Shown in pieces: positions 17,548-57,729 of a stretch of 64,000 nucleotides of DNA; the stretch's first letter is position 1; every line of letters begins with the position of its first letter. The position numbers and the translations under genes are program-made. Source of the DNA: Escherichia coli (GTDB lineage Bacteria > Pseudomonadota > Gammaproteobacteria > Enterobacterales > Enterobacteriaceae); assembly GCF_024298765.1 (NCBI RefSeq), contig NZ_CP101210.1. The stretch is one strand, 5' to 3'. Below the pieces are notes generated by a model. That model was not told where the DNA came from, did no database searches, and saw nothing but the letters and a program-made list of their open reading frames with translations.

Positions 17548-17612
17548 TGATAACAACGTCATTATCAAAGTGACATTTTAACTCTTATTAATAACCTTAG
17601 AGATTATTTACC

Positions 17613-18157: not shown

Positions 18158-19000
18158 ATGGTGCGCGGGATGTTCTGGCTCATGCTGCTTATTATTTCTG
18201 CAAAAATGGCGTATTCACTCTGGCGCTATTTCTCCTTTTCTGCGGAATATACGGTGGTTTCCTCATCGGCGAATAAACCGCTCCGTGCGGATGCAAAACC
18301 GTTCGATAAAAATGACGTGCAATTAGTCAGCCAACAAAACTGGTTTGGCAAATATCAACCCGTCGCCGCACCGGTAAAACAACCTGAATCTGCGCCTGTG
18401 GCAGAAACGCGTCTTAATGTGGTGCTGCGTGGGATCGCCTTTGGTGCCAGACCCGGCGCGGTGATTGAAGAAGGCGGCAAACAGCAGGTCTATTTGCAGG
18501 GTGAACGGCTTGGCTCTCACAACGCAGTGATTGAGGAAATCAACCGCGACCATGTGATGCTGCGCTATCAGGGGAAAATGGAACGTCTGAGTCTGGCAGA
18601 GGAGGAACGCCCCCCTGTGGCGGTCACCAGCAAAAAAGCCGTCAGCGACGAAGCAAAGCAAGCTGTTGCTGAGCCTGCTGCCAGTGCGCCAGTTGAGATC
18701 CCGGCTGCCGTGCGTCAGGCACTGGCGAAAGATCCGCAGAAAATTTTTAACTATATCCAGCTTACGCCTGTGCGTAAGGAGGGAATTGTCGGTTATGCAG
18801 TGAAGCCGGGGGCAGATCGTTCTCTGTTCGATGCCAGCGGTTTCAGGGAAGGCGATATCGCCATTGCACTAAATCAGCAGGATTTCACTGATCCACGAGC
18901 AATGATTGCTCTGATGCGGCAGTTACCTTCAATGGATTCCATTCAACTTACGGTTTTACGCAAGGGTGCGCGCTACGACATTTCCATCGCACTGCGCTAA
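18158..19000 (+). CDS. gspC: Type II secretion system protein C
   Basis: N-terminal TM helix (MFWLMLLIISAKMAYSLW) and C-terminal PDZ-like region; start uncertain (TTG at 18041 versus ATG at 18158). Confidence 0.7.
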   Translation: MVRGMFWLMLLIISAKMAYSLWRYFSFSAEYTVVSSSANKPLRADAKPFDKNDVQLVSQQNWFGKYQPVAAPVKQPESAPVAETRLNVVLRGIAFGARPGAVIEEGGKQQVYLQGERLGSHNAVIEEINRDHVMLRYQGKMERLSLAEEERPPVAVTSKKAVSDEAKQAVAEPAASAPVEIPAAVRQALAKDPQKIFNYIQLTPVRKEGIVGYAVKPGADRSLFDASGFREGDIAIALNQQDFTDPRAMIALMRQLPSMDSIQLTVLRKGARYDISIALR

Positions 19001-19029
19001 CCGCATTTAATCCAGGAGAATCATTCATC

Positions 19030-21090
19030 GTGTTTTGGCGTGATATGACGTTGTCTATCTGGCGTAAGAAGACAACTGGCCTCAAAACAAAAAAGCGTTT
19101 ACTGCCGCTGATGCTGGCAGCGGCATTGTGTAGTTCACCGGTCTGGGCGGAAGAAGCCACTTTCACCGCTAATTTTAAAGATACTGACCTGAAATCGTTC
19201 ATCGAAACCGTCGGCGCTAACCTTAATAAAACCATCATTATGGGGCCGGGCGTTCAGGGGAAAGTGAGTATTCGCACTATGACTCCGCTCAATGAACGCC
19301 AGTATTACCAGTTATTCCTTAACCTGCTGGAAGCACAGGGGTATGCGGTCGTACCGATGGAAAACGACGTGCTGAAGGTGGTGAAATCAAGCGCCGCGAA
19401 AGTCGAGCCGCTGCCGCTGGTCGGTGAAGGCAGCGACAACTACGCGGGCGATGAAATGGTTACCAAAGTCGTGCCGGTACGCAATGTGTCGGTACGCGAG
19501 CTGGCACCGATTCTGCGCCAGATGATTGACAGCGCAGGCTCAGGCAACGTTGTTAATTACGATCCCTCCAACGTGATTATGCTTACCGGACGCGCCTCCG
19601 TTGTGGAGCGCCTGACGGAAGTGATCCAGCGCGTGGATCACGCGGGTAATCGCACCGAAGAGGTGATCCCGCTGGATAACGCCTCAGCCTCGGAAATTGC
19701 CCGCGTGCTGGAAAGCCTGACCAAAAACAGCGGCGAGAACCAGCCAGCAACGCTGAAGTCTCAAATTGTCGCCGATGAACGCACCAACAGCGTGATTGTC
19801 AGTGGTGACCCCGCCACGCGAGACAAAATGCGCCGCCTGATCCGTCGGCTGGATTCAGAAATGGAGCGCAGCGGCAACAGCCAGGTGTTCTATCTCAAAT
19901 ACAGCAAAGCGGAAGATCTGGTCGATGTGCTGAAGCAGGTCAGCGGTACGCTCACGGCGGCTAAAGAAGAGGCGGAAGGCACGGTCGGTAGCGGGCGTGA
20001 GGTTGTCTCCATCGCTGCCAGCAAACACAGTAATGCCCTGATTGTTACTGCGCCGCAGGACATTATGCAGTCGCTGCAAAGCGTGATTGAACAACTGGAT
20101 ATTCGCCGTGCTCAGGTGCATGTCGAGGCGTTAATCGTGGAAGTTGCCGAAGGTAGCAATATCAATTTCGGCGTGCAGTGGGGGTCAAAAGATGCTGGAT
20201 TAATGCAGTTTGCCAACGGTACGCAAATCCCTATTGGTACGCTGGGGGCAGCGATTTCTGCAGCCAAGCCGCAGAAAGGTTCCACGGTGATCAGCGAAAA
20301 CGGTGCTACCACCATAAATCCGGATACTAACGGCGATCTCTCCACGCTCGCTCAGCTCCTTTCTGGCTTTAGTGGTACGGCGGTTGGCGTGGTGAAAGGC
20401 GACTGGATGGCGCTGGTACAGGCGGTCAAAAACGACTCCAGCTCGAACGTGCTCTCCACGCCGAGTATCACCACGCTGGACAACCAGGAAGCCTTCTTCA
20501 TGGTGGGCCAGGACGTTCCGGTATTAACCGGCTCTACCGTTGGTTCCAATAACAGCAATCCTTTCAATACGGTAGAGAGGAAAAAAGTCGGCATCATGCT
20601 GAAAGTCACGCCGCAGATTAACGAAGGTAACGCGGTACAGATGGTGATTGAGCAGGAAGTCTCGAAAGTGGAAGGGCAGACCAGCCTCGATGTCGTGTTT
20701 GGCGAGCGCAAACTGAAAACCACCGTGCTGGCTAACGATGGTGAGCTGATCGTGCTTGGCGGTCTGATGGACGACCAGGCGGGAGAAAGCGTGGCGAAAG
20801 TGCCGCTGCTGGGTGATATCCCGTTGATTGGTAACCTGTTTAAATCGACGGCGGATAAAAAAGAAAAACGTAACCTGATGGTGTTTATCCGCCCGACCAT
20901 TTTGCGTGACGGTATGGCGGCAGACGGCGTGTCGCAGCGCAAATATAACTACATGCGCGCTGAGCAAATCTACCGCGATGAGCAAGGCTTAACCCTGATG
21001 CCGCACACCGCGCAGCCGATATTGCCAGCGCAAAATCAGGCCTTACCGCCGGAAGTACGCGCGTTCCTCAATGCCGGGAGAACGCGTTAA
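19030..21090 (+). CDS. gspD: Type II secretion system secretin
   Basis: 686 aa with signal peptide, N-domains and secretin C-domain ([16 protein letters not shown]); GTG start with upstream AGGAG. Confidence 0.9.
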
Positions 21091-28649: not shown

Positions 28650-28668
28650 TGGTGCCCGGACTCGGAAT
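28650..28668 (-). other. tRNA-Phe 3'-end remnant (19 nt, island attachment-site repeat)
   Basis: TGGTGCCCGGACTCGGAAT is the reverse complement of the 3' end of E. coli tRNA-Phe (…ATTCCGAGTCCGGGCACCA); sequence diverges immediately after, so no tRNA body is present here. Confidence 0.7.
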
Positions 28669-28915
28669 GAAACTGGTTATATAACCAATTGTTTTGTATC
28701 GACTGTTTTATCCTTGTTCTTTTTGAGGCCACCAATGAGGCCCCCATGTGCAATTCGAATTCTTTTGACGCTATAATCCCTCTTTCTTGTGGTTTGTTGT
28801 AATCATTTTGTCTGGTTCGATATGCTGAATCGCGGAATCGAAGTGACAACAAAATACAGAGATTTATAAAATACCTGGCTACCTGTGTTAGGGAGCGTTA
28901 ACGCACAGATTTTGT

Positions 28916-29573: not shown

Positions 29574-30440
29574 TTATGCCTTGCGGCTTTTGTTCACTGT
29601 GCTTGCCAGGGCTTCCGGGTAGTGTCTGGCAATAATATCATTAAGCCTGTCAACCAGCTCTGGTTTCCTGAACGTGATGTGCGCGGAGCCCTTCTTAAAG
29701 TATCTGATGCTGAACATCTCATCTTCATAGTCCTCTTTACCCTGAACAGACTGGATGTGATCATCCAGATGAATGGTGATGTTTTCCCGGTTGTCGGGGA
29801 TCGGTTTGCCGCTGAACAGGTGCAGCATTCTTTCCAGATCGGCAAGTCGATCGGCCTGTTGTCCGGTGATAAGATGAAACCCCCACCGGTCCCACCTCAC
29901 CAGATTGTTGACGATAATTTTACTGCCAAATTTGCAGGGTGAATTGGTTTTGTAATTCCAGCTCAGTCCTCTGAAAACGTTGAGCACCCCTCGCTCAAAC
30001 ACTTCATCTTTGTTCTGGTGCAGTTGTTCAAACGTGCTCAGGATATTTGCTTCGCTGATTTCCGGAAAATTATCGTACTCCAGTGACCGGTACCATGTAT
30101 CACGGGCTTGTGCATCCATTAATGACAGCATCCCTGAACGTTGCATCAGATCACGCCAGATTTCGCGGTCAAGGTTGCGGGTGATGGCTTTCATTGCGGT
30201 TTCCGGTTTTTCCATCAGCCAGCAACCGCAGCGAAAATCCTGTTTCATGGCCCAGTCCAGTGCAGTTTTACCTCCGATGCTTTCCGTCAGCACCGAGATT
30301 TCTGCCAGTTGCCGGATAAGTGTGTCGATTTGCAGCAGCGCACTCTTTCGTACAGCCAGAATGTGGCGGATGCTGGTTGAGCCGATAACGTCCGTATGCC
30401 CGTTGACCACTTCCGGACGGGGGGCTGTGATTTCAGACAT
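29574..30440 (-). CDS. Hypothetical protein (DUF4942-like, CP4-type island cargo)
   Basis: 288-aa ORF with no recognisable catalytic motif; family assignment from recollection of genes adjacent to cbtA/cbeA modules. Confidence 0.45.
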   Translation of the reverse strand: MSEITAPRPEVVNGHTDVIGSTSIRHILAVRKSALLQIDTLIRQLAEISVLTESIGGKTALDWAMKQDFRCGCWLMEKPETAMKAITRNLDREIWRDLMQRSGMLSLMDAQARDTWYRSLEYDNFPEISEANILSTFEQLHQNKDEVFERGVLNVFRGLSWNYKTNSPCKFGSKIIVNNLVRWDRWGFHLITGQQADRLADLERMLHLFSGKPIPDNRENITIHLDDHIQSVQGKEDYEDEMFSIRYFKKGSAHITFRKPELVDRLNDIIARHYPEALASTVNKSRKA

Positions 30441-30524
30441 AATCGATATTCCTTTTTGCAGATAAATGAAAACGCCAGCCCTGTTCAGGCTGGCGTCAGT
30501 GGAATGAAGTCTGGTGAGTAAGAC

Positions 30525-30722
30525 TCACCGGTTCTGTTGCAGAAGCTGCAACTGGCGCAGGATACGGATATCCTCCCTGGCCTGTTCGATACAGGGCAAC
30601 AGTGCTGCCGAATCCGTTCTATCCTCATCGTTGTCAAAGATAATTCCCGATTCGCAGTCGATATTGTCCTGTAGCCACGCAATCAGAATATCCAGTGCGG
30701 TTTCCGTGGTTAATGATTTCAT
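30525..30722 (-). CDS. Small hypothetical protein (CP4-like island)
   Basis: 65 aa from MKSLTTETALDILIAWLQDNIDCESGIIFDNDEDRTDSAALLPCIEQ...; resembles small conserved ORFs near cbtA modules. Confidence 0.4.
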   Translation of the reverse strand: MKSLTTETALDILIAWLQDNIDCESGIIFDNDEDRTDSAALLPCIEQAREDIRILRQLQLLQQNR

Positions 30723-30733
30723 GTTGTTCCTGG

Positions 30734-31225
30734 TTACCAGTCGAAAGTGGGCAGGTCCGGCAGACATTCAGCGCTGGCATCCAGATGAATGAGACTGACG
30801 CCATAACGTCGGGTAAGTGTGACAACCAGACGACGGAACGTTTTTGACAGGCCCAGGCGCTTAAGCCGCAGAACCGGGTATGACCACGCATCGGTACGTA
30901 ACAGATATCCGCTACCTGTGAAATGAATCCATTCTGATTCGCCGGTGCCATTCGTCTGATGTGACAGCGAGTACAGCCAGGCGTTGTCCTTTGCCGTGAT
31001 ATGCGCGGTACTGCAGCGTATGCCGGTAAGGGCCGCCGCAGATGATGGCGTGCGCTCTGCTGATGTCCGGTCAGATTCATCAACAACACGAAGGGAGTAA
31101 CCGTTATCGCAGACCACGTTAATCAGTTCAGCGAGAGTAACACCATCGACGTCAACGACAATGCGCCCCATGTTCAGTGCCTGCACGTTAATGCTGTCGG
31201 CTTCCAGCGTCAGGGCCAGTTTCAT
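30734..31225 (-). CDS. Hypothetical protein downstream of cbtA (YeeW-like position)
   Basis: 163-aa ORF whose start overlaps the cbtA stop; no motif recognised. Confidence 0.4.
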   Translation of the reverse strand: MKLALTLEADSINVQALNMGRIVVDVDGVTLAELINVVCDNGYSLRVVDESDRTSAERTPSSAAALTGIRCSTAHITAKDNAWLYSLSHQTNGTGESEWIHFTGSGYLLRTDAWSYPVLRLKRLGLSKTFRRLVVTLTRRYGVSLIHLDASAECLPDLPTFDW

Positions 31226-31599
31226 TGTTTCGCCCCCGGATGTTTACCCAGGGTAATGTTATTTACCGTTCTGTAATTGTCGCGGGCCATCAGGCCGGTT
31301 GCCCGGCGGGCCCGGAGGATATCAATACTGTTTATTAACTGAGAACGGGTACAGGCGCTGAATCCTGGCTGGTCGGTACGTACCAGTGCGTATTTTTCAA
31401 CGAGAAAGTTCACCGCATCGCACAGTGAAATGCCTGCCTCAATATGCTGCTCAATCACACGTTCATCAGCGAACGGTGTGTCATTCAGTGTGAGGCCGTA
31501 ATGCTGGTCCAACAGTCGGGTGAGCAGTGTCTGCCAGATGGTGACGGGAGACGGGCAGCGCGATGCCTCCCGTACGTGTGTGTCAGGTAATGTTTTCAT
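31222..31599 (-). CDS. cbtA: CbtA/YeeV-family type IV toxin
   Basis: From MKTLPDTHV...; ...WQTLLTRLLDQHYGLTLNDTPFADERVIEQHIEAGISLCDAVNFLVEKYALVRTDQPGFSACTRSQLINSIDILRARRATGLM is near-identical to CbtA/YkfI/YpjF toxins as I recall them. Confidence 0.85.
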   Translation of the reverse strand: MKTLPDTHVREASRCPSPVTIWQTLLTRLLDQHYGLTLNDTPFADERVIEQHIEAGISLCDAVNFLVEKYALVRTDQPGFSACTRSQLINSIDILRARRATGLMARDNYRTVNNITLGKHPGAKQ

Positions 31600-31645
31600 C
31601 TTAAGTTCTCTGTAACTGGTAGTGCTAAAGGTGAGATATTCGGGG

Positions 31646-32020
31646 TTATGAGGTGGTTGCGGGTGCCAGTGTCGGATAAACAGCCATATAAACGTAACCA
31701 CAGCTGCCGAGGGTGTCGGCTTCGCAGGTCAGCCCTCTGGCATACAGCGTGACGGTATGCTGATGGCGGGGATTCAGTTCACCGCTGGTGAGCATGAGTT
31801 CCAGTTGTTTCATCAGCAGCGGAAAGGCCTGGTCCAGATGATACGCATCCGCGTCGCTAAACTGCCCCCTGATACCGGCGCGGTCGGCAAGGTAATGCAA
31901 CCGGTTACCCTCCTGCACCAGACGTGCCCCGAAACAGGGCGTCACGGTGCAGGGGAGCCCCCACCAGGGGCGGTCGTTGTTGTTGTCGGGATGCGTTGTC
32001 CCGGGGTGTGTGTCTGACAC
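31646..32020 (-). CDS. cbeA: CbeA/YeeU-family type IV antitoxin
   Basis: MSDTHPGTTHPDNNNDRPWWGLPCTVTPCFGARLVQEGNRLHYLADRAGIRGQFSDADAYHLDQAFPLLMKQLELMLTSGELNPRHQHTVTLYA... Confidence 0.85.
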   Translation of the reverse strand: MSDTHPGTTHPDNNNDRPWWGLPCTVTPCFGARLVQEGNRLHYLADRAGIRGQFSDADAYHLDQAFPLLMKQLELMLTSGELNPRHQHTVTLYARGLTCEADTLGSCGYVYMAVYPTLAPATTS

Positions 32021-32099
32021 GATAAAATCCTCACAGAAAATCGGTTAAGAATGCTCCGATGGTGGCGATAATTCGGCTCATCAGAATGCCCTTTCTGAT

Positions 32100-32321
32100 T
32101 CAGTTCAGGGTAACGCTCATCAGACGGACATACGGACCAAAACTGTCCTTACGGCGTTCAGCAAACACGGCCAGCACACCGGGAATATCCTGCACTTCAC
32201 GGCCGGTATACGTATCCGTGCTACCGTGCCAGCGGTATTTACCGGTACAGAACGGAAAAAGACGGGATGCAGGATGCTGTTGGTGAATACGCATGGCTTC
32301 ACCACGGGTGATGATTTTCAT
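32100..32321 (-). CDS. yeeT: YeeT-like protein (DUF987)
   Basis: 73 aa MKIITRGEAMRIHQQHPASRLFPFCTGKYRWHGS... Confidence 0.8.
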   Translation of the reverse strand: MKIITRGEAMRIHQQHPASRLFPFCTGKYRWHGSTDTYTGREVQDIPGVLAVFAERRKDSFGPYVRLMSVTLN

Positions 32322-32383: not shown

Positions 32384-32860
32384 TTAAAGCAGACCGTGTT
32401 CGGCAAAGGAGAATACCTGGTTGCCACCGACTATCAGATGGTCCGGCACCCGGATATCCACCAGGGCCAGCGCCTGTACCAGACGTTCAGTGATAAGCCG
32501 GTCTGCCTTACTGGGGGTGACTTCACCGGACGGGTGATTGTGCGCCAGCACCACGGCAGCGGCATTGTGGTACAGGGCACGTTTAATCACCTCCCGGGGA
32601 TGGACTTCTGTGCGGTTGATGGTGCCTGTGAAGAGGGTTTCACCCGCAATCAGCTGATTCTGGTTGTTCAGATACAGCACCCGGAACTCTTCCCGCTCCA
32701 GTCCTGCCATGTTCAGAATCAGCCATTCCCGTGCCGCATGCGTGGAGGTGAAGGCCACGCCGGGCTCATGAAGATGACGGTCCAGGGTTTTCAGGGCCCG
32801 CTGAATGAGGCTGCGCTCGCCGGGCGTCATCTCTCCGGGCAGAAAGGAAAGCTGTTGCAT
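32384..32860 (-). CDS. yeeS: RadC-like JAB-domain protein
   Basis: JAMM-like motif in VVLAHNHPSGEVTPSKADRLITERL; start placed at MQQLSFLPGE. Confidence 0.8.
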   Translation of the reverse strand: MQQLSFLPGEMTPGERSLIQRALKTLDRHLHEPGVAFTSTHAAREWLILNMAGLEREEFRVLYLNNQNQLIAGETLFTGTINRTEVHPREVIKRALYHNAAAVVLAHNHPSGEVTPSKADRLITERLVQALALVDIRVPDHLIVGGNQVFSFAEHGLL

Positions 32861-32875
32861 TGTGCTTCTCTCCAT

Positions 32876-33361
32876 TCAGTCGATGATGCGCATAATGGCG
32901 TTGCATTCCGGATGCTGCAGGGCGTAATCCCGCAACCGATAATAATGGACCGTCATGGCATAATTCTCTGTACGACAGGCGTGATGACTGTACGCCATCA
33001 GACAGGCGGCAATGCCGGCGGCTTCCGGGCTCATTTCAGCGCGGTTGCCGTTCATGGCATTGAACAGTACCCATGTTTCGTCATCATCGTCATCCGGTTC
33101 GGGTACCATAAATGCCCCACCGTTGTTCAGGGTGTACAGATTCCAGATACCACCGCAGTAGTCTTCGCAAAGACGGTCCATCCAGCCGAAGACACGGGGC
33201 TCCAGGGTCACCCACTGTGGAATGAGGCCAAAATGTTGCGGCCAGAAACTGATGCGCTGTTCATCAGGGACGGGAGTGGCAACCAGTTGAGACTGGTTAT
33301 TCCCTGGTGCAGTGGTTACGGAAACAGAAGGCGTGGTGGAGCTATGCGAAAAGGTTGTCAT
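32876..33361 (-). CDS. Antirestriction protein (ArdB/KlcA-like, YfjX family)
   Basis: 161 aa with acidic stretch PEPDDDDDETW and WVTLEPRVFGWMDRLCEDYCGGIWNLYTLNNGGAFMVP motif region recalled from YfjX/YafX proteins. Confidence 0.65.
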   Translation of the reverse strand: MTTFSHSSTTPSVSVTTAPGNNQSQLVATPVPDEQRISFWPQHFGLIPQWVTLEPRVFGWMDRLCEDYCGGIWNLYTLNNGGAFMVPEPDDDDDETWVLFNAMNGNRAEMSPEAAGIAACLMAYSHHACRTENYAMTVHYYRLRDYALQHPECNAIMRIID

Positions 33362-34361: not shown

Positions 34362-34571
34362 TTATTGTCTGAGAAGCCCTTCACTGGCGAGCCACACATT
34401 AAGCTGTTTTCCGGCATCGGATTCAAAATTCCAGTACCGCCAGCGCAACTGACCTTCAGCATTACGGATAACCAGCCGGAAATGCGTTCCCTGGTCATCT
34501 TCAATAAGCACATTGCGGTAAGCTGTTGTGACGGCAACCGCCTGTTCGCGTGAGAAAGGGCCTTCGGGCAA
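34362..34571 (-). CDS. Small DUF905-like protein
   Basis: 69 aa [49 protein letters not shown]... Confidence 0.45.
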
Positions 34572-34600: not shown

Positions 34601-35278
34601 CTATTTTCCGATAAATTCAACGCTGGCACCGGTGGCATTACCGTCAGCACCAACCGTGACGGTCACTTTGTCGTACGCACGGTCTTCAGGATTGAACACT
34701 TCAAACTCAACCTTATTGCCTTTTACTTCGTAAGAGCCAAAATCAGCGGTTTCTGTTGTTTCCTCGTCATATTCCCGGGCGTATGCCAGCCGGGCAGCCT
34801 GCAGGACGGAATCTTTATTAATGGCGGGTGTCTGTTTCGGGGAAAAACCGGCAAGTGATGTGACAAATTTCGGACAGACCTTCAGCATATCACCGCGGGT
34901 GAATTCCATTCGTACACCAAATGCCTGTAAAACGGACACATCACGCTCTGCTATGGAGTGAACGGCTTTTTTGACCATTTCCGGCGCCTGTCCGATTTCC
35001 ACCTCAACAGCCCTGAATCCCGTCTGCTGATTACACATTTGTGATGTGGGGATCAGGTTACCGTTAATACTGATACGGCTGCCCAGGAGCGTCTGTACAC
35101 CATTCGGGCATCCCTGCATCAGGCCGGTAATACCAATCGTGCCATTTTTCAGCATTACCAGCGCCTGACCATCTTCCGTCATGGTCTGACACCAGCCGTT
35201 TTTGACAGCCCAGTTGCCGGCGGAGGCGGAGAATGATGCCACAGTGAACAGCAGGGGAAAAAGAGCTCTGGTATTCAT
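34601..35278 (-). CDS. Exported hypothetical protein (signal peptide)
   Basis: From MNTRALFPLLFTVASFSASAG...; cleavable-looking signal peptide; no functional motif recognised. Confidence 0.45.
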   Translation of the reverse strand: MNTRALFPLLFTVASFSASAGNWAVKNGWCQTMTEDGQALVMLKNGTIGITGLMQGCPNGVQTLLGSRISINGNLIPTSQMCNQQTGFRAVEVEIGQAPEMVKKAVHSIAERDVSVLQAFGVRMEFTRGDMLKVCPKFVTSLAGFSPKQTPAINKDSVLQAARLAYAREYDEETTETADFGSYEVKGNKVEFEVFNPEDRAYDKVTVTVGADGNATGASVEFIGK

Positions 35279-35425
35279 GACTGACCTCTGAAATGAACGT
35301 ACGGTGTTATTGATAATGATGGAAGGTATGCAGTGACTGTTCAGGGAATGACGTAGCCGTATATTTAGTTTTCTGTTCAACATATTGTCTCCATACCTGT
35401 CGGGACGGCTTTGGCAGGCCGGCGA

Positions 35426-36106
35426 TCACAGGTTAAAGGTGTTGATAAGTTTATGGATGAAAGAGAAATGTGGCAGGGCGGAGATAAAACGCTCTTCAGC
35501 GACCAGACTGTGGATGTGGCCTCTCCGTTCAAACCGTTCTGATGTCAGGCTGACTGATTTGATATCTGCCAGAGGAAAGACCTGCAGTTTTCCCTTCTGT
35601 AACGCGATCAGATACCAGCTACCGCTGTAATAAATGAGCCGGCAGGGCTCCAGTGACGGATACCATCGCTCAGTCATCAGAGAGATGTGGATACACTGTC
35701 TTATTGCCAGGATGAGTTGCGAGAAACACTCGGGGAACGTTGCAGTGATATCCGGCGCCGGTAGCCAGATAAGGCAGGGAGAGGGCTCCTGGTTGTCGGT
35801 AAGACAGGTTATCAGTCGTCCGTTCCGGAGCGGAAGTATCCGTGCGATCCCGGTATTCTGTATAAAAGAAAGCATTTCAGGGATCGCACCTGGGCTGCTC
35901 TGTCGTCTGAGGCTGTACCTGCCATTTCTGTACTCTAAATCCAGGTGAACCAGACGCTGATGAAAATCGCGCTGTAAAGTACGTTCTGTAACGCCAAATT
36001 CATCTGACAGTGTTTTTAGTGACAGAGATTCTCCGGCCATCAGTCGGCTGATAATGAGTGATAAGCGAACCGCCAGGCGATCATGCCGGGAACGATTATC
36101 AGACAT
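35426..36106 (-). CDS. HTH + WYL-domain transcriptional regulator (YfjR-like)
   Basis: MSDNRSRHDRLAVRLSLIISRLMAGESLSLKTLSDEFGVTERTLQRDF... N-terminal HTH, C-terminal ...GSWYLIAL... WYL-like segment. Confidence 0.7.
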   Translation of the reverse strand: MSDNRSRHDRLAVRLSLIISRLMAGESLSLKTLSDEFGVTERTLQRDFHQRLVHLDLEYRNGRYSLRRQSSPGAIPEMLSFIQNTGIARILPLRNGRLITCLTDNQEPSPCLIWLPAPDITATFPECFSQLILAIRQCIHISLMTERWYPSLEPCRLIYYSGSWYLIALQKGKLQVFPLADIKSVSLTSERFERRGHIHSLVAEERFISALPHFSFIHKLINTFNL

Positions 36107-36308: not shown

Positions 36309-37193
36309 TCAGAACAGACGATCCCACAGTGTGACCAGCAAGTGGATAATGCGGTCCCGGGCCTTACGCAGAAGCTGTAACATCCAGGCCGGAAAGCTGA
36401 ATTGGGCAACGGCAGCGTCAAAGCTTTTCCCGATGGCGTCACCAAAAGTTTGTTGTGCGTGTTTCCGGGCCTGTTCAGAGCGGTTTTCCCCCCGGATATG
36501 TGAATAAACTGCGCTGGTTGCCTGTGGTGGCAGTGCGTGGATCATCAGCGACACCAGTGCCGGAAGATTCCAGCCGACAGGTGCGGCAACGGAGAGTACC
36601 GGAAATGATGACGGGAACAGGGGTGCCACCCGGGCTGTTACTGTCGCCAGTGAGAGTTCCTGCTGACGGGACGGGCATTTTTCTGTGTCGTTCCATTCTT
36701 CAGCAGGAAACACGCGATCGGCATGGCTGAGAACAAACAGAAAACGCGAGGGATCTGCACCTTCATTCAGTAAAAACTGATGCATGGCAATATCAGCAGC
36801 ATACGCACGTTCATCAGCCCGCAGGATCCAGATAATCAGATCCAGTTCCGGCAGTAACTGACGGTAAAGCTCCCGGTATTCCTGATCATGCTGCGGTGTC
36901 TCACCAATGCCGGGCATATCGACCAGCGTCATTCTGCGTTCACCGAGCTGCAGGGTAAGACGATGAGCCTGGCGGGTGCAGCCGTTCAGGGGATGCGTGG
37001 CGCAGATACGGGACTGAAAAATGGCATTACACAGACTGCTTTTGCCGGTGCCGGATTTACCCATAATGCCAATTACGGGCTCGTAATGAATAACACCGTG
37101 GAGATGTTCAAGGATTTTCTGGCGAATTTCTTCAGGAAGAAACGTCAGATATGATTTTACTTGTGCAGAGAGGGAAGAATGGCTGAATGACAT
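36309..37193 (-). CDS. GTP-binding protein (YfjP/YkfA/YeeP family)
   Basis: G1 motif GIMGKSGTGKSS, G3-like DMPGIGE; 294 aa. Confidence 0.8.
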   Translation of the reverse strand: MSFSHSSLSAQVKSYLTFLPEEIRQKILEHLHGVIHYEPVIGIMGKSGTGKSSLCNAIFQSRICATHPLNGCTRQAHRLTLQLGERRMTLVDMPGIGETPQHDQEYRELYRQLLPELDLIIWILRADERAYAADIAMHQFLLNEGADPSRFLFVLSHADRVFPAEEWNDTEKCPSRQQELSLATVTARVAPLFPSSFPVLSVAAPVGWNLPALVSLMIHALPPQATSAVYSHIRGENRSEQARKHAQQTFGDAIGKSFDAAVAQFSFPAWMLQLLRKARDRIIHLLVTLWDRLF

Positions 37194-37377: not shown

Positions 37378-38508
37378 ATGACCGGACGTAAAAACAAATG
37401 TGTCAGAAAAAATTGTAACAATCAGGTTTTCTCAGTAAAAATGGCAGTGGAGAAAAGACTGTGCAGAAAACATTATGAGAGGTTTTGTGAGCTCAAAAAA
37501 AGAAGAGAGCAAAATCCTGTTCACAGATTAAATGAAGCATTGCCAAGAAAGATAAAAGGACCAAAAAGTAAGAAAAAATTAGTAAAAGAAAGAGAAATCA
37601 TTAACAGCAGAAAAAAACATAAACAGGAGCAGGGACCATCGCTGACTGAACTTAATAAAAAAGTTCGTGAGATACTGAAAACTCCTGCATGGAGAACGCT
37701 GGAAACGAGAATTCGAAGAAACGGAATCACATTTAACTCAAAAGCAGAGTTAGATGCGCTTTCTGAACTTTATGCAATTTATTCATGGGTTTCATATTGC
37801 AAACGGGGCGATAATTATTCTGTGTGGTTTTTGAATTGTCCGGATGTAAATATAAACCTTCATGTGTGCGAATGCCGGTCTTCTGAAAGCGATTGTTATC
37901 TGCCATCTCGTTTTATTATTCTTCCAGCTCCATTAAGGCAAAAAGTAAAAAGAAAATACTCGGCTAATTCGTCTGGGGTACCAGGACATAATGATTCAAA
38001 AAGTCTTTATAAGACAGTTTTGTCTGTTTGTGGTGGGAAAAGAGAAACCGAAATGTTCTTTTATTCATTGCCAGTAAAGACTAATCATCATCCTTACTGG
38101 ATTAAAAGTGGTGTGGTTAAAAGATTCCCTCCTGTTTTTGGTTTGTTGTTTTATGAACAGGAAAGATTAACAGGAGGTGTTTTTCGTTATGTGTTGATAA
38201 GATTTTATAATACTTTTAAAGAGAATTTGTTTTTTGTTGAGATTGTATCGTGCTGTTTTCTTGTTGAGCTTTTTCATGATATTGATTCATTTTTTATAAA
38301 TCAACGATTAAGTAAGCTGGAAAGTTTTATAGATAAGTGGAGGGAGGGTAAAGAAATCTGGATAAAAGTATATTTACAACTGATACATACTATATTGGGA
38401 ATAACTGAAACAGAAAAACTCGTCAATCTATATAATTCATTTTTTACTGATAAAGTGGTTCTCTGGGATGAATCAGTAAAAAAAGTTAAGTGGATTTATG
38501 AGAAATAG
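37378..38508 (+). CDS. Hypothetical Lys-rich protein with Cys-rich N-terminus (orphan)
   Basis: 376-aa ORF, strongly AT-rich by eye; N-terminus CVRKNCNNQ...CRKHYERFC; no recognisable homolog. Confidence 0.45.
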   Translation: MTGRKNKCVRKNCNNQVFSVKMAVEKRLCRKHYERFCELKKRREQNPVHRLNEALPRKIKGPKSKKKLVKEREIINSRKKHKQEQGPSLTELNKKVREILKTPAWRTLETRIRRNGITFNSKAELDALSELYAIYSWVSYCKRGDNYSVWFLNCPDVNINLHVCECRSSESDCYLPSRFIILPAPLRQKVKRKYSANSSGVPGHNDSKSLYKTVLSVCGGKRETEMFFYSLPVKTNHHPYWIKSGVVKRFPPVFGLLFYEQERLTGGVFRYVLIRFYNTFKENLFFVEIVSCCFLVELFHDIDSFFINQRLSKLESFIDKWREGKEIWIKVYLQLIHTILGITETEKLVNLYNSFFTDKVVLWDESVKKVKWIYEK

Positions 38509-40745: not shown

Positions 40746-41111
40746 ACCCTGTAAAACAGCATCTGGTGCCTGAGTGTATACCACGGTAAGGGCGTTGGAT
40801 GATGTCTTTAAATAATACAGTGCATTTTCATTCGTTTCCGCACTTTATGTTTTCACTAATCATAATAGGAAAAGTGACCACTAGCCTTGATAAATTGTAT
40901 TCACGGCCATTTCAGGAGTGGATTGTTGTGAATAACACGATGAGATCAGGGGGCTGAAGATTTTTTCTTTATCCGTTCAGACTTCAGTAACTGGAAAAAG
41001 CTTTCTGTAACCGCATTATAGTGGCAGTTACCGCGATGGTCGTGTTATTTCAGGAACGACTGACGCTCATGGCTTGTACACTAAAGAGTGAACTTAGGTA
41101 ATGACTCCAAC

Positions 41112-41615
41112 TTATTGATAGTGTTTTATGTTCAGATAATGCCCGATGACTTTGTCATGCAGCTCCACCGATTTTGAGAACGACAGCGACTTCCGTCCCA
41201 GCCGTGCCAGGTGCTGCCTCAGATTCAGGTTATGCCGCTCAATTCGCTGCGTATATCGCTTGCTGATTACGTGCAGCTTTCCCTTCAGGCGGGATTCATA
41301 CAGCGGCCAGCCATCCGTCATCCATATCACCACGTCAAAGGGTGACAGCAGGCTCATAAGACGCCCCAGCGTCGCCATAGTGCGTTCACCGAATACGTGC
41401 GCAACAACCGTCTTCCGGAGACTGTCATACGCGTAAAACAGCCAGCGCTGGCGCGATTTAGCCCCGACATAGCCCCACTGTTCGTCCATTTCCTCGCAGA
41501 CGATGACGTCACTGCCCGGCTGTATGCGCGAGGTTACCGACTGCGGCCTGAGTTTTTTAAGTGACGTAAAATCGTGTTGAGGCCAACGCCCATAATGCGG
41601 GCAGTTGCCCGGCAT
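41112..41615 (-). CDS. insB: IS1 InsB (expressed as InsAB by frameshift)
   Basis: ...[64 protein letters not shown]... Confidence 0.9.
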
Positions 41616-41809
41616 CCGACGCCATTCATGGCCATATCAATGATTTTCTGGTGCGTACCGGGTTGAGAGGCGGTGTAAGTGAACTGTAGTTGCCATGTTT
41701 TACGGCAATGAGAGCAGAGATAGCGCTGATGTCCGGCAGTGCTTTTGCCGTTACGCACCACGCCTTCAGGAGCGGAGCAGGAAGGACATCTGATGGAAAT
41801 GGAAGCCAC
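41534..41809 (-). CDS. insA: IS1 InsA
   Basis: [43 protein letters not shown]... Confidence 0.9.
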
Positions 41810-42072
41810 GCAAGCACCTTAAAATCACCATCATACACTAAATCAGTAAGTTGGCACCATTACCTGACCAAGCTTCCTCTATTGCGGCACCTGATTGCAT
41901 CAATATCGAAAGTGATAAGATCCTCTCACTAGCAGGGCATGACAAGTGTAACTGCTGATTTGTTAGCCTGTTTTAAGTTTTTTAAGATCAATTATTTCTC
42001 ATTTTTTGACTTTATTGCTAGCCGTGAAAATGCAAAGCCTATAGGATACAAAAATTACAATTTGTAGGTTTT

Positions 42073-42579
42073 GTGAGTCATATGAAGGCAACCAATATAG
42101 ACCCTCAACTGCTTGAAAAAGCCACGAGTATCTTTGCTGAGTTGGGCTTACCTATTGAGCAGGCTATTAACGTCTTTTTAGCTAAATCCGTTCAAGCCAA
42201 AGGTTTTCCGTTTTCTGTTGCTCTTGAAAATGAAGTAGAGACACGGGAAGTTGCACAAACGCAACACAATATCAGCAATGCAGAGATAACCGAAGCTATC
42301 CAAGACTTGGTTGAACATGCTCTACCACTGAGTGAAATAGAAAACCTCACGCAGCTAACCTATTGTCGCAACATTTTTGGGTTGTCATTCCCCGTGCTCA
42401 AACTGGCTAAATCATCACGGCCAGAAGACATTCGCAGTGCAGCCAAAGATGCCAAAGAGCGAAACCGCTACTCCACCACTAAAGTGGCCCAGCGAGATGA
42501 AAAAACCTATGTTATTTGCACCCAATGGACCGACAGACATCGTTCTGCATTTTGCCGTTGGCAAGCCATCTTTAGCTAG
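42073..42579 (+). CDS. RelB/DinJ-like antitoxin-domain protein with C-terminal extension
   Basis: N-terminus MKATNIDPQLLEKATSIFAELGLPIEQAINVFLAKSVQAKGFPF resembles DinJ/RelB RHH antitoxins; ~90-aa C-terminal extension unrecognised; no adjacent toxin ORF. Confidence 0.5.
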   Translation: MSHMKATNIDPQLLEKATSIFAELGLPIEQAINVFLAKSVQAKGFPFSVALENEVETREVAQTQHNISNAEITEAIQDLVEHALPLSEIENLTQLTYCRNIFGLSFPVLKLAKSSRPEDIRSAAKDAKERNRYSTTKVAQRDEKTYVICTQWTDRHRSAFCRWQAIFS

Positions 42580-42645
42580 AACGCAAAATAATAACCAAAC
42601 AATACACTGATTTTTTAACGATTTAACTTCATTTAGGTAGTATCA

Positions 42646-44625
42646 ATGAACTTACAAGACAAAGAACAAAGCGCCAAACTCTCCAGTGCTATTTGGCGTA
42701 TGGCAGATGATTTATGGGGTGATTTCAAACACACCGATTTTGCGCGGATTATCCTGCCATTTTTGCTACTGCGTCGTATTGAATGCGTGTTAGAACCCAC
42801 CCGTGAGGAAGTTCGTAAGTTCTATCTGGCCGAAAAACAATCCGGCATAGACCTTGGTTTAGTGTTGCCAGAAATTGCGGGATTCGCCTTTTACAACACC
42901 AGTGAATATAGCCTAGAAACCTTAGGCGCGTCAGACACCGGCGACAACCTAGAACACTACATCAGCCAGTTCAGCAAAAACGTTCGTACCATCTTTGATG
43001 AGTTTAAATTTGGTCAAACCATAGAAGATCTGGAAAAAGCCAAGTTGCTGTATCGCATGGTAAACCATTTTGCCAACCTCGACTTGCATCCTGATGTAGT
43101 GTCTGACCGCGTATTATCAGATGCTTATGAAGAGCTGATTCTAAAGTTCGCCAGTTCGGTTAATGAAAAGGCCGGGGAATTTATGACCCCGCGTGATGCC
43201 GTGCGTCTTGCCACCAAACTGGTGCTGGCGGCGGATGAAGATATCTTTAGTGAAAAGGGTGTGATCCGCACCATCTATGACCCAACCTGTGGCACGGGCG
43301 GTTTCCTTTCCGATGCCATTAGCCAAATTGAAGAAATGGGCAGCAGCGCTAAAGTCGTGCCTTTTGGTCAAGAGCTCGACCCCGCGACCCATGCCATGGC
43401 GCTGACCAATATGATGATCCGCGGTTTTGATGCCAATAACATCAAGCAAGGCAACACCTTATCAGACGATCAGTTACGTGCCGACAAGTTTCACTACGGC
43501 CTTGCCAACCCGCCATTTGGCATTAAGTGGGAAAAAGCCAAGAAAGAAGTAGAACGTGAGCACAAACAGCTCAAATACGCCGGACGCTTTGGGCCAGGCC
43601 TGCCGAGTATTTCTGATGGTTCAATGCTGTTTTTACTGCACTTGGTATCAAAAATGGAAACGCCGGAAAATGGTGGTGGCCGAGTGGGTATAGTCCTTTC
43701 TGGCTCGCCACTGTTTAATGGCGATGCAGGCTCAGGCCCATCAGAAATCCGCCGTTGGCTGCTAGAACAAGACTTAGTCGAAGCGATTGTTGCCCTGCCA
43801 ACCGATATGTTCTTCAACACCGGCATTGGCACCTACATCTGGATTTTGACTAACCATAAAGAGCCAAGACGCAAGAATCAGGTGCAACTGATTAACTTGG
43901 CAGATATTTGGACTCCCATGCGTAAATCGCAAGGCGATAAGCGCAAGTACCTGAGTGATGAACAGATTGACGATATTGTCCGTGCGTACGATGGCTTTGA
44001 AGCCAGTGACAACTGTAAGATCTTCCAGACTACTGATTTTGCCTACCGTAAAGTCACCATTCAGCGTCCACTGCGTGCCAAACTAGATATTACCGCTGCG
44101 GGCATTGCTGCATTTGTGCAGCAAGATACGTTTAAAAAACTCAAACCAGAGCAACAAGCGGCATGGGTACAATACCTCACCGATAACCTTGGCCTTCAGC
44201 CTTATGAATGGGCACGTTTGGCGGTTAAGAAGAATAACAATAAGGGTGACTTTGGTAAGTGCTCAAAAGCACTGGCTACGGCCTTAACTGCGCACTTTGT
44301 AAAAATTGATCCGCAATTTGAGCCTGCACTGGATGAAAAAGGCCAAGTGATCGCCGACCCTAAACTCAAAGACACCGAAAGCATTCCTTTTGACCGCGAC
44401 GTTGAAGATTACTTCGCACAAGAGGTGCTGCCACATGTACCGGATGCCTTTATTGATCACTCAGTGCGTGATGAAAAAGACGGCGAAGTGGGCATTGTCG
44501 GTTATGAAATTAACTTTAACCGCTATTTCTACCAATACGTGCCACCACGCGAGTTGAGTGTGATTGATCGTGAGCTAAAAGCATGTGAAGCGCGCATTCA
44601 GGCTCTGCTGAATGAGGTGGCGTAA
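42646..44625 (+). CDS. hsdM: Type I restriction-modification system, DNA methyltransferase subunit
   Basis: AdoMet motif DPTCGTGGFL and catalytic NPPF (GLANPPFGIKWEK); 659 aa. Confidence 0.9.
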   Translation: MNLQDKEQSAKLSSAIWRMADDLWGDFKHTDFARIILPFLLLRRIECVLEPTREEVRKFYLAEKQSGIDLGLVLPEIAGFAFYNTSEYSLETLGASDTGDNLEHYISQFSKNVRTIFDEFKFGQTIEDLEKAKLLYRMVNHFANLDLHPDVVSDRVLSDAYEELILKFASSVNEKAGEFMTPRDAVRLATKLVLAADEDIFSEKGVIRTIYDPTCGTGGFLSDAISQIEEMGSSAKVVPFGQELDPATHAMALTNMMIRGFDANNIKQGNTLSDDQLRADKFHYGLANPPFGIKWEKAKKEVEREHKQLKYAGRFGPGLPSISDGSMLFLLHLVSKMETPENGGGRVGIVLSGSPLFNGDAGSGPSEIRRWLLEQDLVEAIVALPTDMFFNTGIGTYIWILTNHKEPRRKNQVQLINLADIWTPMRKSQGDKRKYLSDEQIDDIVRAYDGFEASDNCKIFQTTDFAYRKVTIQRPLRAKLDITAAGIAAFVQQDTFKKLKPEQQAAWVQYLTDNLGLQPYEWARLAVKKNNNKGDFGKCSKALATALTAHFVKIDPQFEPALDEKGQVIADPKLKDTESIPFDRDVEDYFAQEVLPHVPDAFIDHSVRDEKDGEVGIVGYEINFNRYFYQYVPPRELSVIDRELKACEARIQALLNEVA

Positions 44626-45911
44626 TGAATGCTGGCAACATAGTAGATGCTTTCGTATCTGACTCGAAATGGAACTCAGTACCAGCTAAACGTTTATTTA
44701 CGAGTAGCAAAGAAATCAATCAAGGAATGAAAGAATCTAATCGTCTTGCACTAACAATGAAAGGTGTCATAAACCGCTCGTTAGACGATTTACAAGGACT
44801 TCAATCTTCTGATTACTCTGTTTATCAGATTTTTGAAAAAGATGACTTAGTTTTTAAGCTCATAGATCTTGAAAATATAAAGACTAGCCGAGTGGGGATT
44901 GTGCATGAACGAGGAATAATGAGCCCTGCATACATCCGTGTTTCAGCGAGTTCAAATAGCATCTACCCAAGGTTCTATTACTGGTACTTTTTTGCTCTAT
45001 ACCTAACCAATATTTATAACAAACTGGGTGGAGGAGTTCGTCAGAACCTAACAGCTGGTGATCTTTTAGAAATACCTGTTCCACTGATTGATATTTCATT
45101 ACAGAAGCAGGTTAGCACATTCCTTGATCGCGAAACCCAGCGCATCGACAGTCTGATCGAGGAAAAGCAGACCTTTATTAAGCTGCTCAAAGAAAAACGC
45201 CAAGCACTGATCAGCCATGTGGTCACAAAGGGGCTCTATCCCAATGTGGAGATGCAGGACTCTGGCATCGAGTGGATTGGGCAAGTGCCGAAGCATTGGG
45301 AAGTCAAAAAGATAAAGCATATTTGCTCCAACTTTATGTATGGAACCTCTCAAGACTGTAACCAGTCTGATGTTGGCTATCCTGTTCTCAGGATACCAAA
45401 CATCAAGAGTACCAATGTTGATTTTGAAGATCTCAAATATGCAAATATCAGTGATGTTGATGCTTTAACTTATCTTTTATCAAGAGGCGACATTTTAGTC
45501 ATCAGAACTAACGGTAACCCTAATCTGGTCGGCCAAAGCGCGCTTTTTGATTCAAATGGGCAGTATTTATTTGCGTCGTACCTAATAAAGTTAACACCAA
45601 AGCAAGGAGTGGATACTAGCTTCTTAGTGGAAGCGATGAACTCACTATCTGTTCGTCAAGCATTAACATTTCAGTCAAGAACATCGGTAGGTAACTACAA
45701 CCTGAGCATTCCTTCACTAGCTAATACAAGTATTGCTATCCCACCAATTGATGAGCAAAAGACAATAACGAATTACTTGAGTGCAGCAACGATAAACATT
45801 GATTTACTGATTCAAGAGACTGATAAATCGATTGATCTTCTAAAAGAACACCGCACATCGCTGATCAACGCGGCTGTCACAGGAAAAATAGACGTCAGGG
45901 AGGCGGTGTAA
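44625..45911 (+). CDS. hsdS: Type I restriction-modification system, specificity subunit
   Basis: 428 aa with two target-recognition domains separated by conserved repeats (LIEEKQTFIKLLKEKRQALISHVVTKGL / LLIQETDKSIDLLKEHRTSLINAAVTGKIDV); start overlaps hsdM stop (TAATG). Confidence 0.85.
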   Translation: MNAGNIVDAFVSDSKWNSVPAKRLFTSSKEINQGMKESNRLALTMKGVINRSLDDLQGLQSSDYSVYQIFEKDDLVFKLIDLENIKTSRVGIVHERGIMSPAYIRVSASSNSIYPRFYYWYFFALYLTNIYNKLGGGVRQNLTAGDLLEIPVPLIDISLQKQVSTFLDRETQRIDSLIEEKQTFIKLLKEKRQALISHVVTKGLYPNVEMQDSGIEWIGQVPKHWEVKKIKHICSNFMYGTSQDCNQSDVGYPVLRIPNIKSTNVDFEDLKYANISDVDALTYLLSRGDILVIRTNGNPNLVGQSALFDSNGQYLFASYLIKLTPKQGVDTSFLVEAMNSLSVRQALTFQSRTSVGNYNLSIPSLANTSIAIPPIDEQKTITNYLSAATINIDLLIQETDKSIDLLKEHRTSLINAAVTGKIDVREAV

Positions 45912-48900
45912 TGGCTGCACATCATGAAGTGCATTTTGAACAATATATTACCGAGCAGTTGGTGAACAATGGCTGGAAAGAAGGCCATTCCTGCCACTAT
46001 GACCAGCAACGCGCCCTTTACCCGCAAGATGTCATGGATTGGGTAAAGGCCACCCAGCCAGATGCCTGGCACAAACTGAATAAACTGCATGGTGTGAATG
46101 CCGAGCAGGTGCTGTTGGAGCGTTTGGAAAAAGCCCTCTCTTCCCACAAAGCTGGCAGTAAAACAGGTGGCACCATTAATGTGCTGCGTAAAGGCTTTAC
46201 CATTGCAGGTTGCGGCACGATTGCCATGGGCCAACGCAAACCCGAAGATGCGCGCAATGAAGAGCGTATAGCCCGTTATGAGCACAACATTTTGCGCGTG
46301 GTGCGCCAACTGAAATATTGCCCGACTCGCGAGTGGGAAATTGACTTGGTGTTCTTTATCAACGGTCTACCCGTTGCCACCGCCGAGCTAAAAACCGATT
46401 TTACCCAGTCGCTAGAATCGGCGATTGCGCAGTACAAAGAGGATCGTCTGCCCGTTGACCCAAAAACCAAGCGTAAAGAGCCGCTGTTAACCTTTAAACG
46501 CGGTGCAGTGGTACATTTTGCCATGTCTGATACAGAAATCGCCATGGCGACCAAACTGGCGGGAGAAAATACCTATTTTCTGCCCTTCAATAAAGGCCAT
46601 GATGGTTCTACCTCTGATTTGCCCGTACACATCAACTTGCCGGGTGAAGATGGAGAGTATCCGGTCAGCTATTTTTGGCAAGAAATTGCCCAAAAAGATA
46701 ATTGGCTACGCATTTTCTACAGCTTTGTGTATGTCGAAACCAAAGAGGTTGCCGATAGCAATGGCAAGGTTGAGCGTAAGGAAACACAGATTTTTCCGCG
46801 TTATCATCAGTTAGCCGCAGTCAACAAGATGATTGATGATGCCCGCCAGAACGGCGCAGGCATGCAGTATCTTTGTGAGCACAGCGCCGGTTCGGGAAAA
46901 ACCTCTACCATAGCCTGGACGGCCCATGATTTGATTCGTTTACGCAGCACCGATGGTAAAGCGGTCTTTAAATCAGTGATCATTGTGACCGACCGCACCG
47001 TGCTGGATTCGCAGTTGCAAGATGCGGTGCAACAGCTGGATCATCAATATGGGGTGATTAAGGCGATTGATCGCGAAAAGAGCAGCGAGTCGAAATCAAA
47101 ACAGCTGACTGAAGCGCTATTGACTGGCACGCCGATCATTGTAGTGACGATTCAAACCTTCCCATATGCGTTAGAAGCGATTCTGACCAATCAATCTTTG
47201 GCACAAAGTAACTTTGCGGTGATCATCGATGAAGCACACACCTCGCAAACAGGCTCTACAGCCAAAGGGTTACGCGCAGCGCTTACTCTAAACCTTAGCC
47301 CTCAAGAGTTGGAGCAAATGAGCATTGAGGACATTCTTACTAAGGTGCAAGAAGCGCGCGCCATGCCCAAGAACGTTTCGCACTTTGCTTTTACGGCAAC
47401 ACCCAAGCACAGCACCAAGATGTTGTTTGGCCGCCCGAAAGACCCTAACCAACCAGTGTCAGATGACAATCTTCCTGAATCGTTCCACCTCTACACCCAA
47501 CGTCAGGCCATTGATGAGGGTTTTATTCTTGATGTGCTGGAGAATTACACCCACTACGATACAGCCTACAAAATTGGTGAGAACAATCTGGATGAGAAGC
47601 GCGTAGACAGCAAACAAGCTCGCCGCGCGTTGGCGCGCTGGATGTCACTGCACCCAACCACGGTCAGCCAAAAAGTCGAATTTATTATTAAGCACTTCAA
47701 GGCCAATATCGCTCACCTACTGGAAGGTGAAGCCAAAGCCATGGTGGTCACATCGGGCAGGCCACAGGCGGTGAAATACAAGCTTGCTTTTGATAAATAC
47801 ATTAAAAAGCATGGTATTGAAGGTATCCAAGCCTTGGTTGCCTTCTCGGGCAAAGTCCCCGGCAAAGATTTGGGTGATGAAGACAGCCAAGACCCGCTAG
47901 AAATTGATTTCGATAAAGAGTACACCGAGTACAACTTAAACCCAGACACGCACGGGGCTGACCTGCGCCATGAGTTTGAGAAAACCGAATATCGCGTCAT
48001 GTTAGTCGCCAACAAGTTCCAAACGGGCTTTAATCAACCAAAACTGGTTGCCATGTATTTGGATAAGAAAATATCCGATGTAGAAGCGGTGCAAACGCTG
48101 TCTCGCCTAAACCGCACCTATCCAGGCAAAGACACAACCTTCGTGATTGATTTTGTTAACGATCCACAAACCATTCTCAATGCGTTCAAAAAGTACGACA
48201 AAGGCGCGCAGCTTAATGAAGTGCAAGATGTGAACGTCATCTATGACATCAAAGATATTTTGGATGAACAGAACATATACAACCATCAAGATTTAGAGTT
48301 GTTTAAGCAAGCGCGTGGTAAATCGATTCTCGGCCAATCACCTGACAAAAAGCCACACGCGCACAAGAAACTGCTAGCTGCCACACAACGCCCTACCGAT
48401 GTGTTCAACGTTAAGCTCAAAGAGCTGGTTGATGCTGCAAACCATTGGGATCAGCAATACAACAAAGCGCACCTTGCGGGTGATGAAAAAGCGGCGAACT
48501 ACGCAGAATCTCAGCGCAGTGATTTCACCAAGCAGCGCGAAGCACTAATGCGTTTTAAGTCAGATTTAGCTCGATTTGTGAAGCACTATAGCTATATGGC
48601 GCAATTGATTGAGTTTGGTGATCCTGAACTGGAAAACTTTGCCGCGTTTGCTCATTTGCTATCACGTCGATTGAAAGGGGTAACACCAGAAAACATCGAT
48701 CTCAGTGCACTGGTACTAGAAAAATTCAAAATCAAATACGACAAAGAGCCGCTTCCAGAAGCGTTTAATCAGGTACTTGAACCTATCCGCCCCAACTATA
48801 ACGACCCTGCGGATCGTGAACAGGCATTTCTTGCCGATATCATTCGCCGCCTAAACGAACTGTTTGGCGATGTCGGCGACGAACCCGGTCGCCGAAACTT

Positions 48901-54986: not shown

Positions 54987-57729
<2,743 letters not shown>

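Follow-up and report, generated by a model that had tools for sequence, protein, structure and literature searches.

The antirestriction gene ardB of the analysed DNA, a stretch of 64,000 nucleotides from Escherichia coli (the window), is a standard chromosomal-island ArdB gene, and we consider it probable, at roughly four chances in five, that it acts as a generic establishment aid and that its proximity to the type I restriction-modification (R-M) system hsdMSR is incidental, having come about by capture at an IS1 element and subsequent rearrangement. The occurrence of ardB beside an R-M system in E. coli islands is not to be read as a functional pairing, because ardB is a near-universal backbone gene and the neighbourhood was made by IS-mediated capture and rearrangement. 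A preliminary description of this DNA had suggested that the island may carry both a weapon and a potential modulator; of that suggestion the identity of the ArdB protein and the general activity of its family stood, while a functional coupling of the two loci did not, given the backbone position of ardB, the separate origin of the hsd genes and a proximity produced by IS elements. The weapon-plus-modulator idea as a whole is unlikely. The family, the structure, the activity against type I systems and the presence in E. coli islands of ArdB had all been published in 2010.

The gene at the centre of the analysis is the following.

32876-33361, minus strand: ardB, encoding an ArdB/KlcA-family antirestriction protein of 161 aa with the acidic loop DDDDDE at residues 90-95

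The open reading frame is intact, with an ATG start codon and the Shine-Dalgarno sequence AAGGA 8 nt upstream. The preliminary description had taken this frame, with its DDDDDE stretch, for a gene of the ArdB/KlcA type and had left its relatedness to a profile search, which now places it in that family over the full profile: the product matches Pfam PF03230 ('Antirestrict') at positions 1-92 of 92 with 126.6 bits (E 4e-37; curated cut-off 25 bits). Among solved structures it matches PDB entry 2WJ9 with 321 bits over residues 12-161 and KlcA (2KMG) with 73 bits over residues 24-161. Entry 2WJ9 is labelled 'intergenic-region protein' only, its code is not mentioned in the study of the CFT073 protein (PMC2836571), and we take it to be ArdB of E. 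coli CFT073 (PAI-II ORF14); its chain differs from the window protein at 6 positions over residues 24-161 (~96% identity in the core) and carries the identical acidic loop PEPDDDDDETW. With 19 D+E as compared to 8 K+R residues, the product shows the ArdB/KlcA trait of a small acidic protein of ~135-160 aa encoded on a mobile element. A total of 1575 homologues of ardB was collected, and every one that carries a name in its source is called 'antirestriction protein', which is also the RefSeq name at all homologous loci, in thousands of genomes. Across the window protein and its enterobacterial homologues, which are 67-93% identical overall, 82 positions are invariant. A tblastn search of the window revealed no second ardB and no other antirestriction gene, and ArdB matched no PADLOC or NCBIfam model, a result that is uninformative as these are defence and naming libraries.

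The DDDDDE stretch was considered as a defining antirestriction or DNA-mimic feature and was rejected, as it varies in close homologues (DENSDE, EEGSNE and NENDE), is absent from KlcA, where 2KMG has DLAG and a 3-residue gap at the position of the poly-Asp loop, and belongs to a family of non-mimics. Within the acidic stretch of ArdB homologues only E88 and E95 are conserved, and D94 mostly so. Residues 1-23 of the protein are Ser/Thr-rich, vary widely among alleles that are otherwise 90-95% identical and lie outside the region aligned with KlcA; they have the appearance of a tail that is hypervariable and probably disordered.

The window gene belongs to the subgroup of ArdB_CFT073, YafX and YfjX. 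ArdB_CFT073 shares with it the fold family and the setting on a tRNA-linked pathogenicity island, but differs in the N-terminal ~23 residues and in length, the CFT073 protein studied previously being 157 aa long (NP_752219; PMC2836571). YfjX (CP4-57) and YafX (CP4-6) of E. coli K-12 occupy the same position in a CP4-type module, beside radC-like and cbtA/cbeA-like genes, although both are 152 aa in length and reside in cryptic prophage-like elements of K-12 rather than in a pheV island. KlcA of the IncP-1 plasmid pBP136 and the ArdB proteins of pKM101 and R64 share the PF03230 family and align over the full length, and they likewise inhibit type I restriction, spare modification and are non-mimics; they differ from the window protein in being plasmid-borne and of low overall identity.

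The general statement of the preliminary description that ArdB-type proteins inhibit type I restriction agrees with published work, in which ArdB_CFT073, YafX and YfjX, expressed at a low level from plasmids, were found to relieve restriction of lambda in vivo by EcoKI (type IA), EcoAI (type IB), EcoR124I (type IC) and StySBLI (type ID) by ~10- to 9000-fold (PMC2836571). In the same study this effect was independent of ClpXP, the anti-modification exerted by the three proteins was mostly below 3-fold (Table 2), purified ArdB proteins failed to inhibit EcoKI in vitro, and KlcA was found to have a fold that does not mimic DNA (PMC2836571). The ArdB protein of R64 inhibits type I systems, including two from Bacillus, independently of the recognition site, leaves BREX and type III systems unaffected and partly inhibits EcoR124I and EcoAI in vitro (PMC10149784), and BlihIA is directly inhibited by it in vitro (PMC12429846). 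The best-supported mechanism of ArdB is a broad block of the HsdR-dependent restriction reaction, exerted without DNA mimicry and leaving M2S methylation intact, with a direct action on the enzyme being suggested for some type I systems. By analogy with ArdB_CFT073 the window protein would be expected to be active in antirestriction, with the caveat that the allele differs from the tested protein by the six core substitutions and by its N-terminal tail. An assay in which the antirestriction gene is expressed and restriction efficiency is scored, as proposed in the preliminary description, has in effect been published for ArdB_CFT073, YafX and YfjX. When expressed, ardB would switch off type I restriction but not modification, and its role is likely to be that of a generic entry or establishment aid directed against the type I systems of the recipient on transfer.

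To 28.5 kb the window consists of E. coli chromosome, with glcA, yghJ/sslE, pppA and the type II secretion genes gspC to gspM, and adjoining gspM lies a degenerate repeat of the pheV 3' end, which occurs once in the window as compared to 0 expected from 100 shuffles. Beyond it ardB is embedded in two collinear gene sets, assigned from Pfam or other domain matches together with the annotation of collinear loci (for the distal set, the RefSeq annotation of locus L001).

28650-28672, minus strand: degenerate copy of the pheV tRNA 3' end with 2 of its 23 nt mismatched, forming the distal boundary of the island beside gspM
29574-32321, minus strand: distal CP4-like module
29574-30440, minus strand: DUF4942 gene of the distal module
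30525-30767, minus strand: DUF957-like open reading frame of the distal module
30734-31225, minus strand: DUF5983 gene of the distal module
31222-31701 (longest open reading frame), minus strand: CbtA toxin gene of the distal module
31646-32020, minus strand: CbeA antitoxin gene of the distal module
32100-32321, minus strand: DUF987 gene of the distal module
32384-32875, minus strand: gene with a RadC-like JAB domain, following ardB directly, PF04002 153.5 bits
33453-34271, minus strand: DUF932 gene directly upstream of ardB, in a YafZ/YfjQ-like position, PF06067 175 bits
34362-37193, minus strand: proximal CP4-like module
34362-34571, minus strand: DUF905 gene of the proximal module
34601-35383, minus strand: conserved hypothetical gene of the proximal module
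35426-36106, minus strand: WYL/HTH YafY-like regulator gene of the proximal module
36309-37193, minus strand: YeeP/YfjP-like GTPase gene of the proximal module

The DUF932 gene is separated from ardB by 91 bp, and the order on this one strand is GTPase, WYL/YafY regulator, DUF905, DUF932, ArdB, RadC-JAB, DUF987, CbeA, CbtA, DUF5983 and DUF4942, which makes the neighbourhood of ardB a classic module of the CP4-44/CP4-57/CP4-6 type. Two frames of this region are of separate note. The first, at 34601-35383 on the minus strand, encodes up to 260 aa and gave no family match though it is conserved in the CP4-like module, and in other genomes it is annotated as a 225-aa hypothetical protein. The second, at 37378-38508 on the plus strand (376 aa), was matched by no model of Pfam, NCBIfam or PADLOC. 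Most of the related islands examined conserve it beside the gene for the island GTPase, in divergent orientation, and in the O111:H8 strain a longer hypothetical frame takes its place.

The prevalence of ardB bears on its status within the module. Of 5426 complete E. coli genomes, 4455 (82%) contain DNA closely similar to ardB, at 12501 places in all (median 3, at most 13 per genome) and with nearly all best matches at least 90% identical, whereas hsdMSR was detected in just 76 of the 5426 (1.4%), always as a single copy and at an identity of at least 99%. Elsewhere the CP4-like half of our query adjoins other cargo, such as a type II Zorya system, an HNH endonuclease or adhesins. From these frequencies and from the varied cargo beside the module it follows that ardB belongs to the fixed backbone of the CP4-like module, and that hsdMSR is one rare cargo among many.

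Alternatively, the ardB copy might be silent and without present function in the strain, as the leftover of an island that has decayed under IS insertion, and some features of the locus fit such a relic: the island is a mosaic heavily broken up by IS1, IS3 and a group II intron, the window holds neither an integrase of the ardB island nor a tRNA gene (sought as an island anchor), and genomes may carry as many as 13 redundant ardB copies. This explanation is nevertheless improbable, as the frame is intact and has a good ribosome-binding site, the invariant positions persist among homologues of considerable divergence, and retention in thousands of genomes suggests purifying selection rather than decay.

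On the other side of the module, on the opposite strand from ardB, lies the type I system with its neighbouring genes.

42073-42579, plus strand: orphan RelB/DinJ-like gene upstream of hsdM, PF04221 24.5 bits, TIGR02384 41 bits (below cut-off)
42646-44625, plus strand: hsdM, 659 aa, with HsdM_N (PF12161) and N6_Mtase (PF02384), PADLOC MTase_I PDLC03029 807.8 bits over the full length
44625-45911, plus strand: hsdS, 428 aa, with PF01420 (Methylase_S) in two stretches, PADLOC Specificity_I 324 bits over the full length
45911-49147, plus strand: hsdR, 1078 aa, with HSDR_N (PF04313), SWI2_SNF2/ResIII (PF18766/PF04851) and a T1R_D3-like domain (PF22679)
49147-49701, plus strand: KwaA-like gene, 184 aa, PADLOC KwaA E 9e-16 at near full-length coverage
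49701-50543, plus strand: KwaB-like gene, 280 aa, PADLOC KwaB E 7e-14 at near full-length coverage
50564-51613, plus strand: RhuM family gene, PF13310 379 bits
51671-52057, minus strand: mobI(A/C), PF19456 MobI 97 bits, right-hand part of a mobilizable-island remnant

No internal stop was found in hsdM, hsdS or hsdR, and the functional motifs are in place: HsdM carries motif I as DPTCGTGG and motif IV as NPPF, HsdS has two target-recognition domains, and HsdR combines a D...ELK nuclease motif in its N-terminal domain with an SF2 motor carrying GSGKT (residue 327) and DEAH (residue 440). The start of ardB (33361) and that of hsdM (42646) are 9,285 bp apart, and the preliminary description was therefore right in placing a full hsdMSR system about 10 kb from ardB; its statement that the two share an island holds in a positional sense, as both lie in non-core DNA past the pheV repeat.

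The affiliation of hsdMSR within the type I systems was approached through solved structures. HsdM found its best structure match in 7VRU (118 bits), followed by HsdM of EcoR124II (95 bits) and of EcoKI (53 bits), and the scores of HsdM and HsdR against the TIGR hsdM and hsdR models were under the cut-offs. Placement of the system in a classical type I family by this route was abandoned as HsdR is too divergent, matching HsdR of the type IC enzyme EcoR124I with 23 bits only. As judged from these similarity scores hsdMSR probably lies outside types IA and IC, and, owing to the divergence of HsdR, its sensitivity to ArdB is not inferable by family; the distance of this HsdR from the IA-ID archetypes is a further caveat to our reading.

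Downstream of hsdR the two small Kwa-like frames continue the gene cluster, with TAATG stop/start overlaps at all four junctions between hsdM, hsdS, hsdR, the KwaA-like and the KwaB-like gene, an arrangement which suggests a single operon of five translationally coupled genes at 42646-50543. In some RefSeq records the frame at 49147-49701 is called 'KwaA family protein'. The PADLOC matches of the pair are weak despite their coverage: NCBIfam KwaA gave 25 bits, the cut-off of which is 100, Pfam DUF4868, the domain of KwaB, was not matched in the frames at 49147-50543, and BLASTP detected no similarity of the pair to canonical E. coli kwaAB. The two may represent a divergent Kiwa-like pair joined to a type I R-M operon.

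The separate origin of the hsd block was apparent from strain 1585m1, in which the block sits between tnaA and mnmE in an intact island devoid of ardB. The order there is recombinase, relB-like gene, hsdM, hsdS, hsdR, two small open reading frames, rhuM, mobI(A/C), HTH gene, DUF927 gene, HTH gene and integrase, and the window has the same rhuM-mobI order; window positions 42073-52057, from the relB-like gene to mobI, correspond to positions 2987-20142 of locus L006. The same architecture has been described for trmE-integrating, IncA/C-mobilised islands of the MGIVchHai6/GIVchHai7 family, in which mobI and pinE enclose a type I hsd cluster (PMC4958241), and as the 1585m1 island has that architecture and lacks ardB, the hsd block must have an origin separate from that of ardB. 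The block is the mobI-to-pinE interior of an IncA/C-mobilizable island of the MGIVchHai6/GIVchHai7 type, with mobI(A/C) followed by the type I hsd cluster reaching to a pinE-type recombinase. Whereas the intact E. coli relative at mnmE has int and DUF927, the window retains the relB-like to mobI segment only and has it inside a pheV island: the window lacks int, xis, DUF927 and pinE as well as the mnmE site. Of the features that define membership of the MGIVchHai6 type (int/xis at the 3' end of trmE, DUF927, mobI and cargo extending to pinE), mobI and the hsd cargo alone were found, and the window block is an island remnant, not a member element. It is stranded inside the pheV island with IS1 having cut one side and IS3 the other.

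Where the CP4-like half meets the hsd block there is an insertion sequence.

41112-41615, minus strand: IS1 transposase open reading frame, PF03400 257.8 bits, marking this junction

Alignments with other genomes that cover one half of the query or the other start or stop near query positions 12698-13469, equivalent to window positions 41097-41868. In all six island-borne copies examined (FY10, 201609, 254D-1, 2009C-3133, JCH8249 and O111:H8 7-58 72A) the relB-like gene is preceded, at 272-273 bp, by IS1, while the intact element of 1585m1 has its recombinase at this place. The presence of IS1 at the same point in all six copies points to one capture of the hsd block into a CP4-type island. 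According to our proposal, an hsd fragment of an IncA/C-mobilizable mnmE/trmE island would have been captured once, at IS1, into a CP4-type island.

The spacing between the two loci proved to be variable. In strains 201609, 2009C-3133, JCH8249 and O111:H8 7-58 72A ardB is located past hsdR at a distance of 22.6-26.3 kb and has the opposite relative orientation, three of these four layouts being known to be at selC (201609, 2009C-3133 and JCH8249); 254D-1 is left out of these distances as the stretch taken from it stops short of the module. In strain 201609 a 624-bp gene annotated as 'DNA-binding protein' or 'ECs1377 family protein' lies on either side of the hsd segment, the two copies being inverted. 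In the window, on the other hand, the order is CP4 module, Gp2-like gene, IS1, relB and hsdMSR, and this layout with its 9-kb spacing recurs in only 4 genomes at a coverage of at least 80% of the query. The window order is explained by an inversion between such repeats together with a deletion beside IS1, and, as the layout is confined to 4 genomes and can be derived in this manner, the 9-kb spacing is a recent, derived accident. In the window lineage, inversion and deletion beside IS1 would have moved the hsd block from ~24 kb to 9 kb of ardB.

Against this background an alternative has to be weighed in which ArdB is dedicated to the co-resident hsdMSR, as its modulator or establishment factor, and on transfer of the island restrains the incoming HsdR while HsdM and HsdS methylate the new chromosome; it could in addition tune restriction in the resident host. 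The property that such an establishment helper needs, to block restriction and spare modification, is that of ArdB-type proteins, and six of the seven sampled hsd-positive genomes have ardB and hsdMSR in the same island. This co-occurrence, which by distribution alone would be compatible with a benefit of co-carriage and which we also regard as a caveat to our own explanation, traces back to one capture in all six, as every island-borne copy has the same IS1 junction. The hsd block moreover exists intact in 1585m1, with its own integrase and mobI and without ardB, and ardB is found in 82% of genomes whatever the cargo. The two loci are on opposite strands, with IS1 and unrelated genes between them, and their distance varies from 9 to 26 kb. 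Type I systems, furthermore, have intrinsic establishment control, by ClpXP-dependent restriction alleviation for types IA and IB and by assembly tuning for type IC (PMC12707154). Finally, E. coli K-12 carries yafX and yfjX and yet restricts by EcoKI, and since unmodified lambda is still restricted by ~four orders of magnitude in K-12 backgrounds, we infer that resident chromosomal copies of ArdB are expressed too little to disarm a resident type I system. Given the broad action of ArdB proteins, modulation of the resident hsdMSR is possible in principle, but taken together these observations make a dedicated modulator very improbable and argue for the absence of a dedicated tie between the two loci.

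Fainter still is the likelihood that the island ardB acts as a trans-acting safety catch, by its property of blocking restriction and sparing modification, and so allows the divergent type I system and its coupled Kiwa-like genes to establish in naive hosts on transfer of the composite island; if this were true, their co-carriage would be selected and not an accident. The reading that we prefer is that of a standard island ArdB whose task in situ would be generic and whose nearness to hsdMSR was brought about by IS1 capture and rearrangement.

Some further observations concern the surroundings of the two loci. The RelB/DinJ-like protein, of 168 aa, has an N-terminal RelB/DinJ-like domain and no adjoining toxin gene; its gene directly precedes hsdM at all loci that were examined, the intact 1585m1 island at mnmE among them, and the product may regulate the hsd operon instead of acting as an antitoxin. 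Related composite islands, combining the CP4 module, the hsd block and nanXY, are located at selC in FY10, 201609, 2009C-3133 and JCH8249, and related islands show 97-99% nucleotide identity over the 25-kb query; as the site is selC in those strains and pheV in the window, the tRNA site differs among related islands. A disrupted IS3-family element located between the hsd block and nanY/nanX of the window contains a group II intron reverse transcriptase/maturase gene (RVT_1 and GIIM domains) at 55550-57073 on the minus strand.
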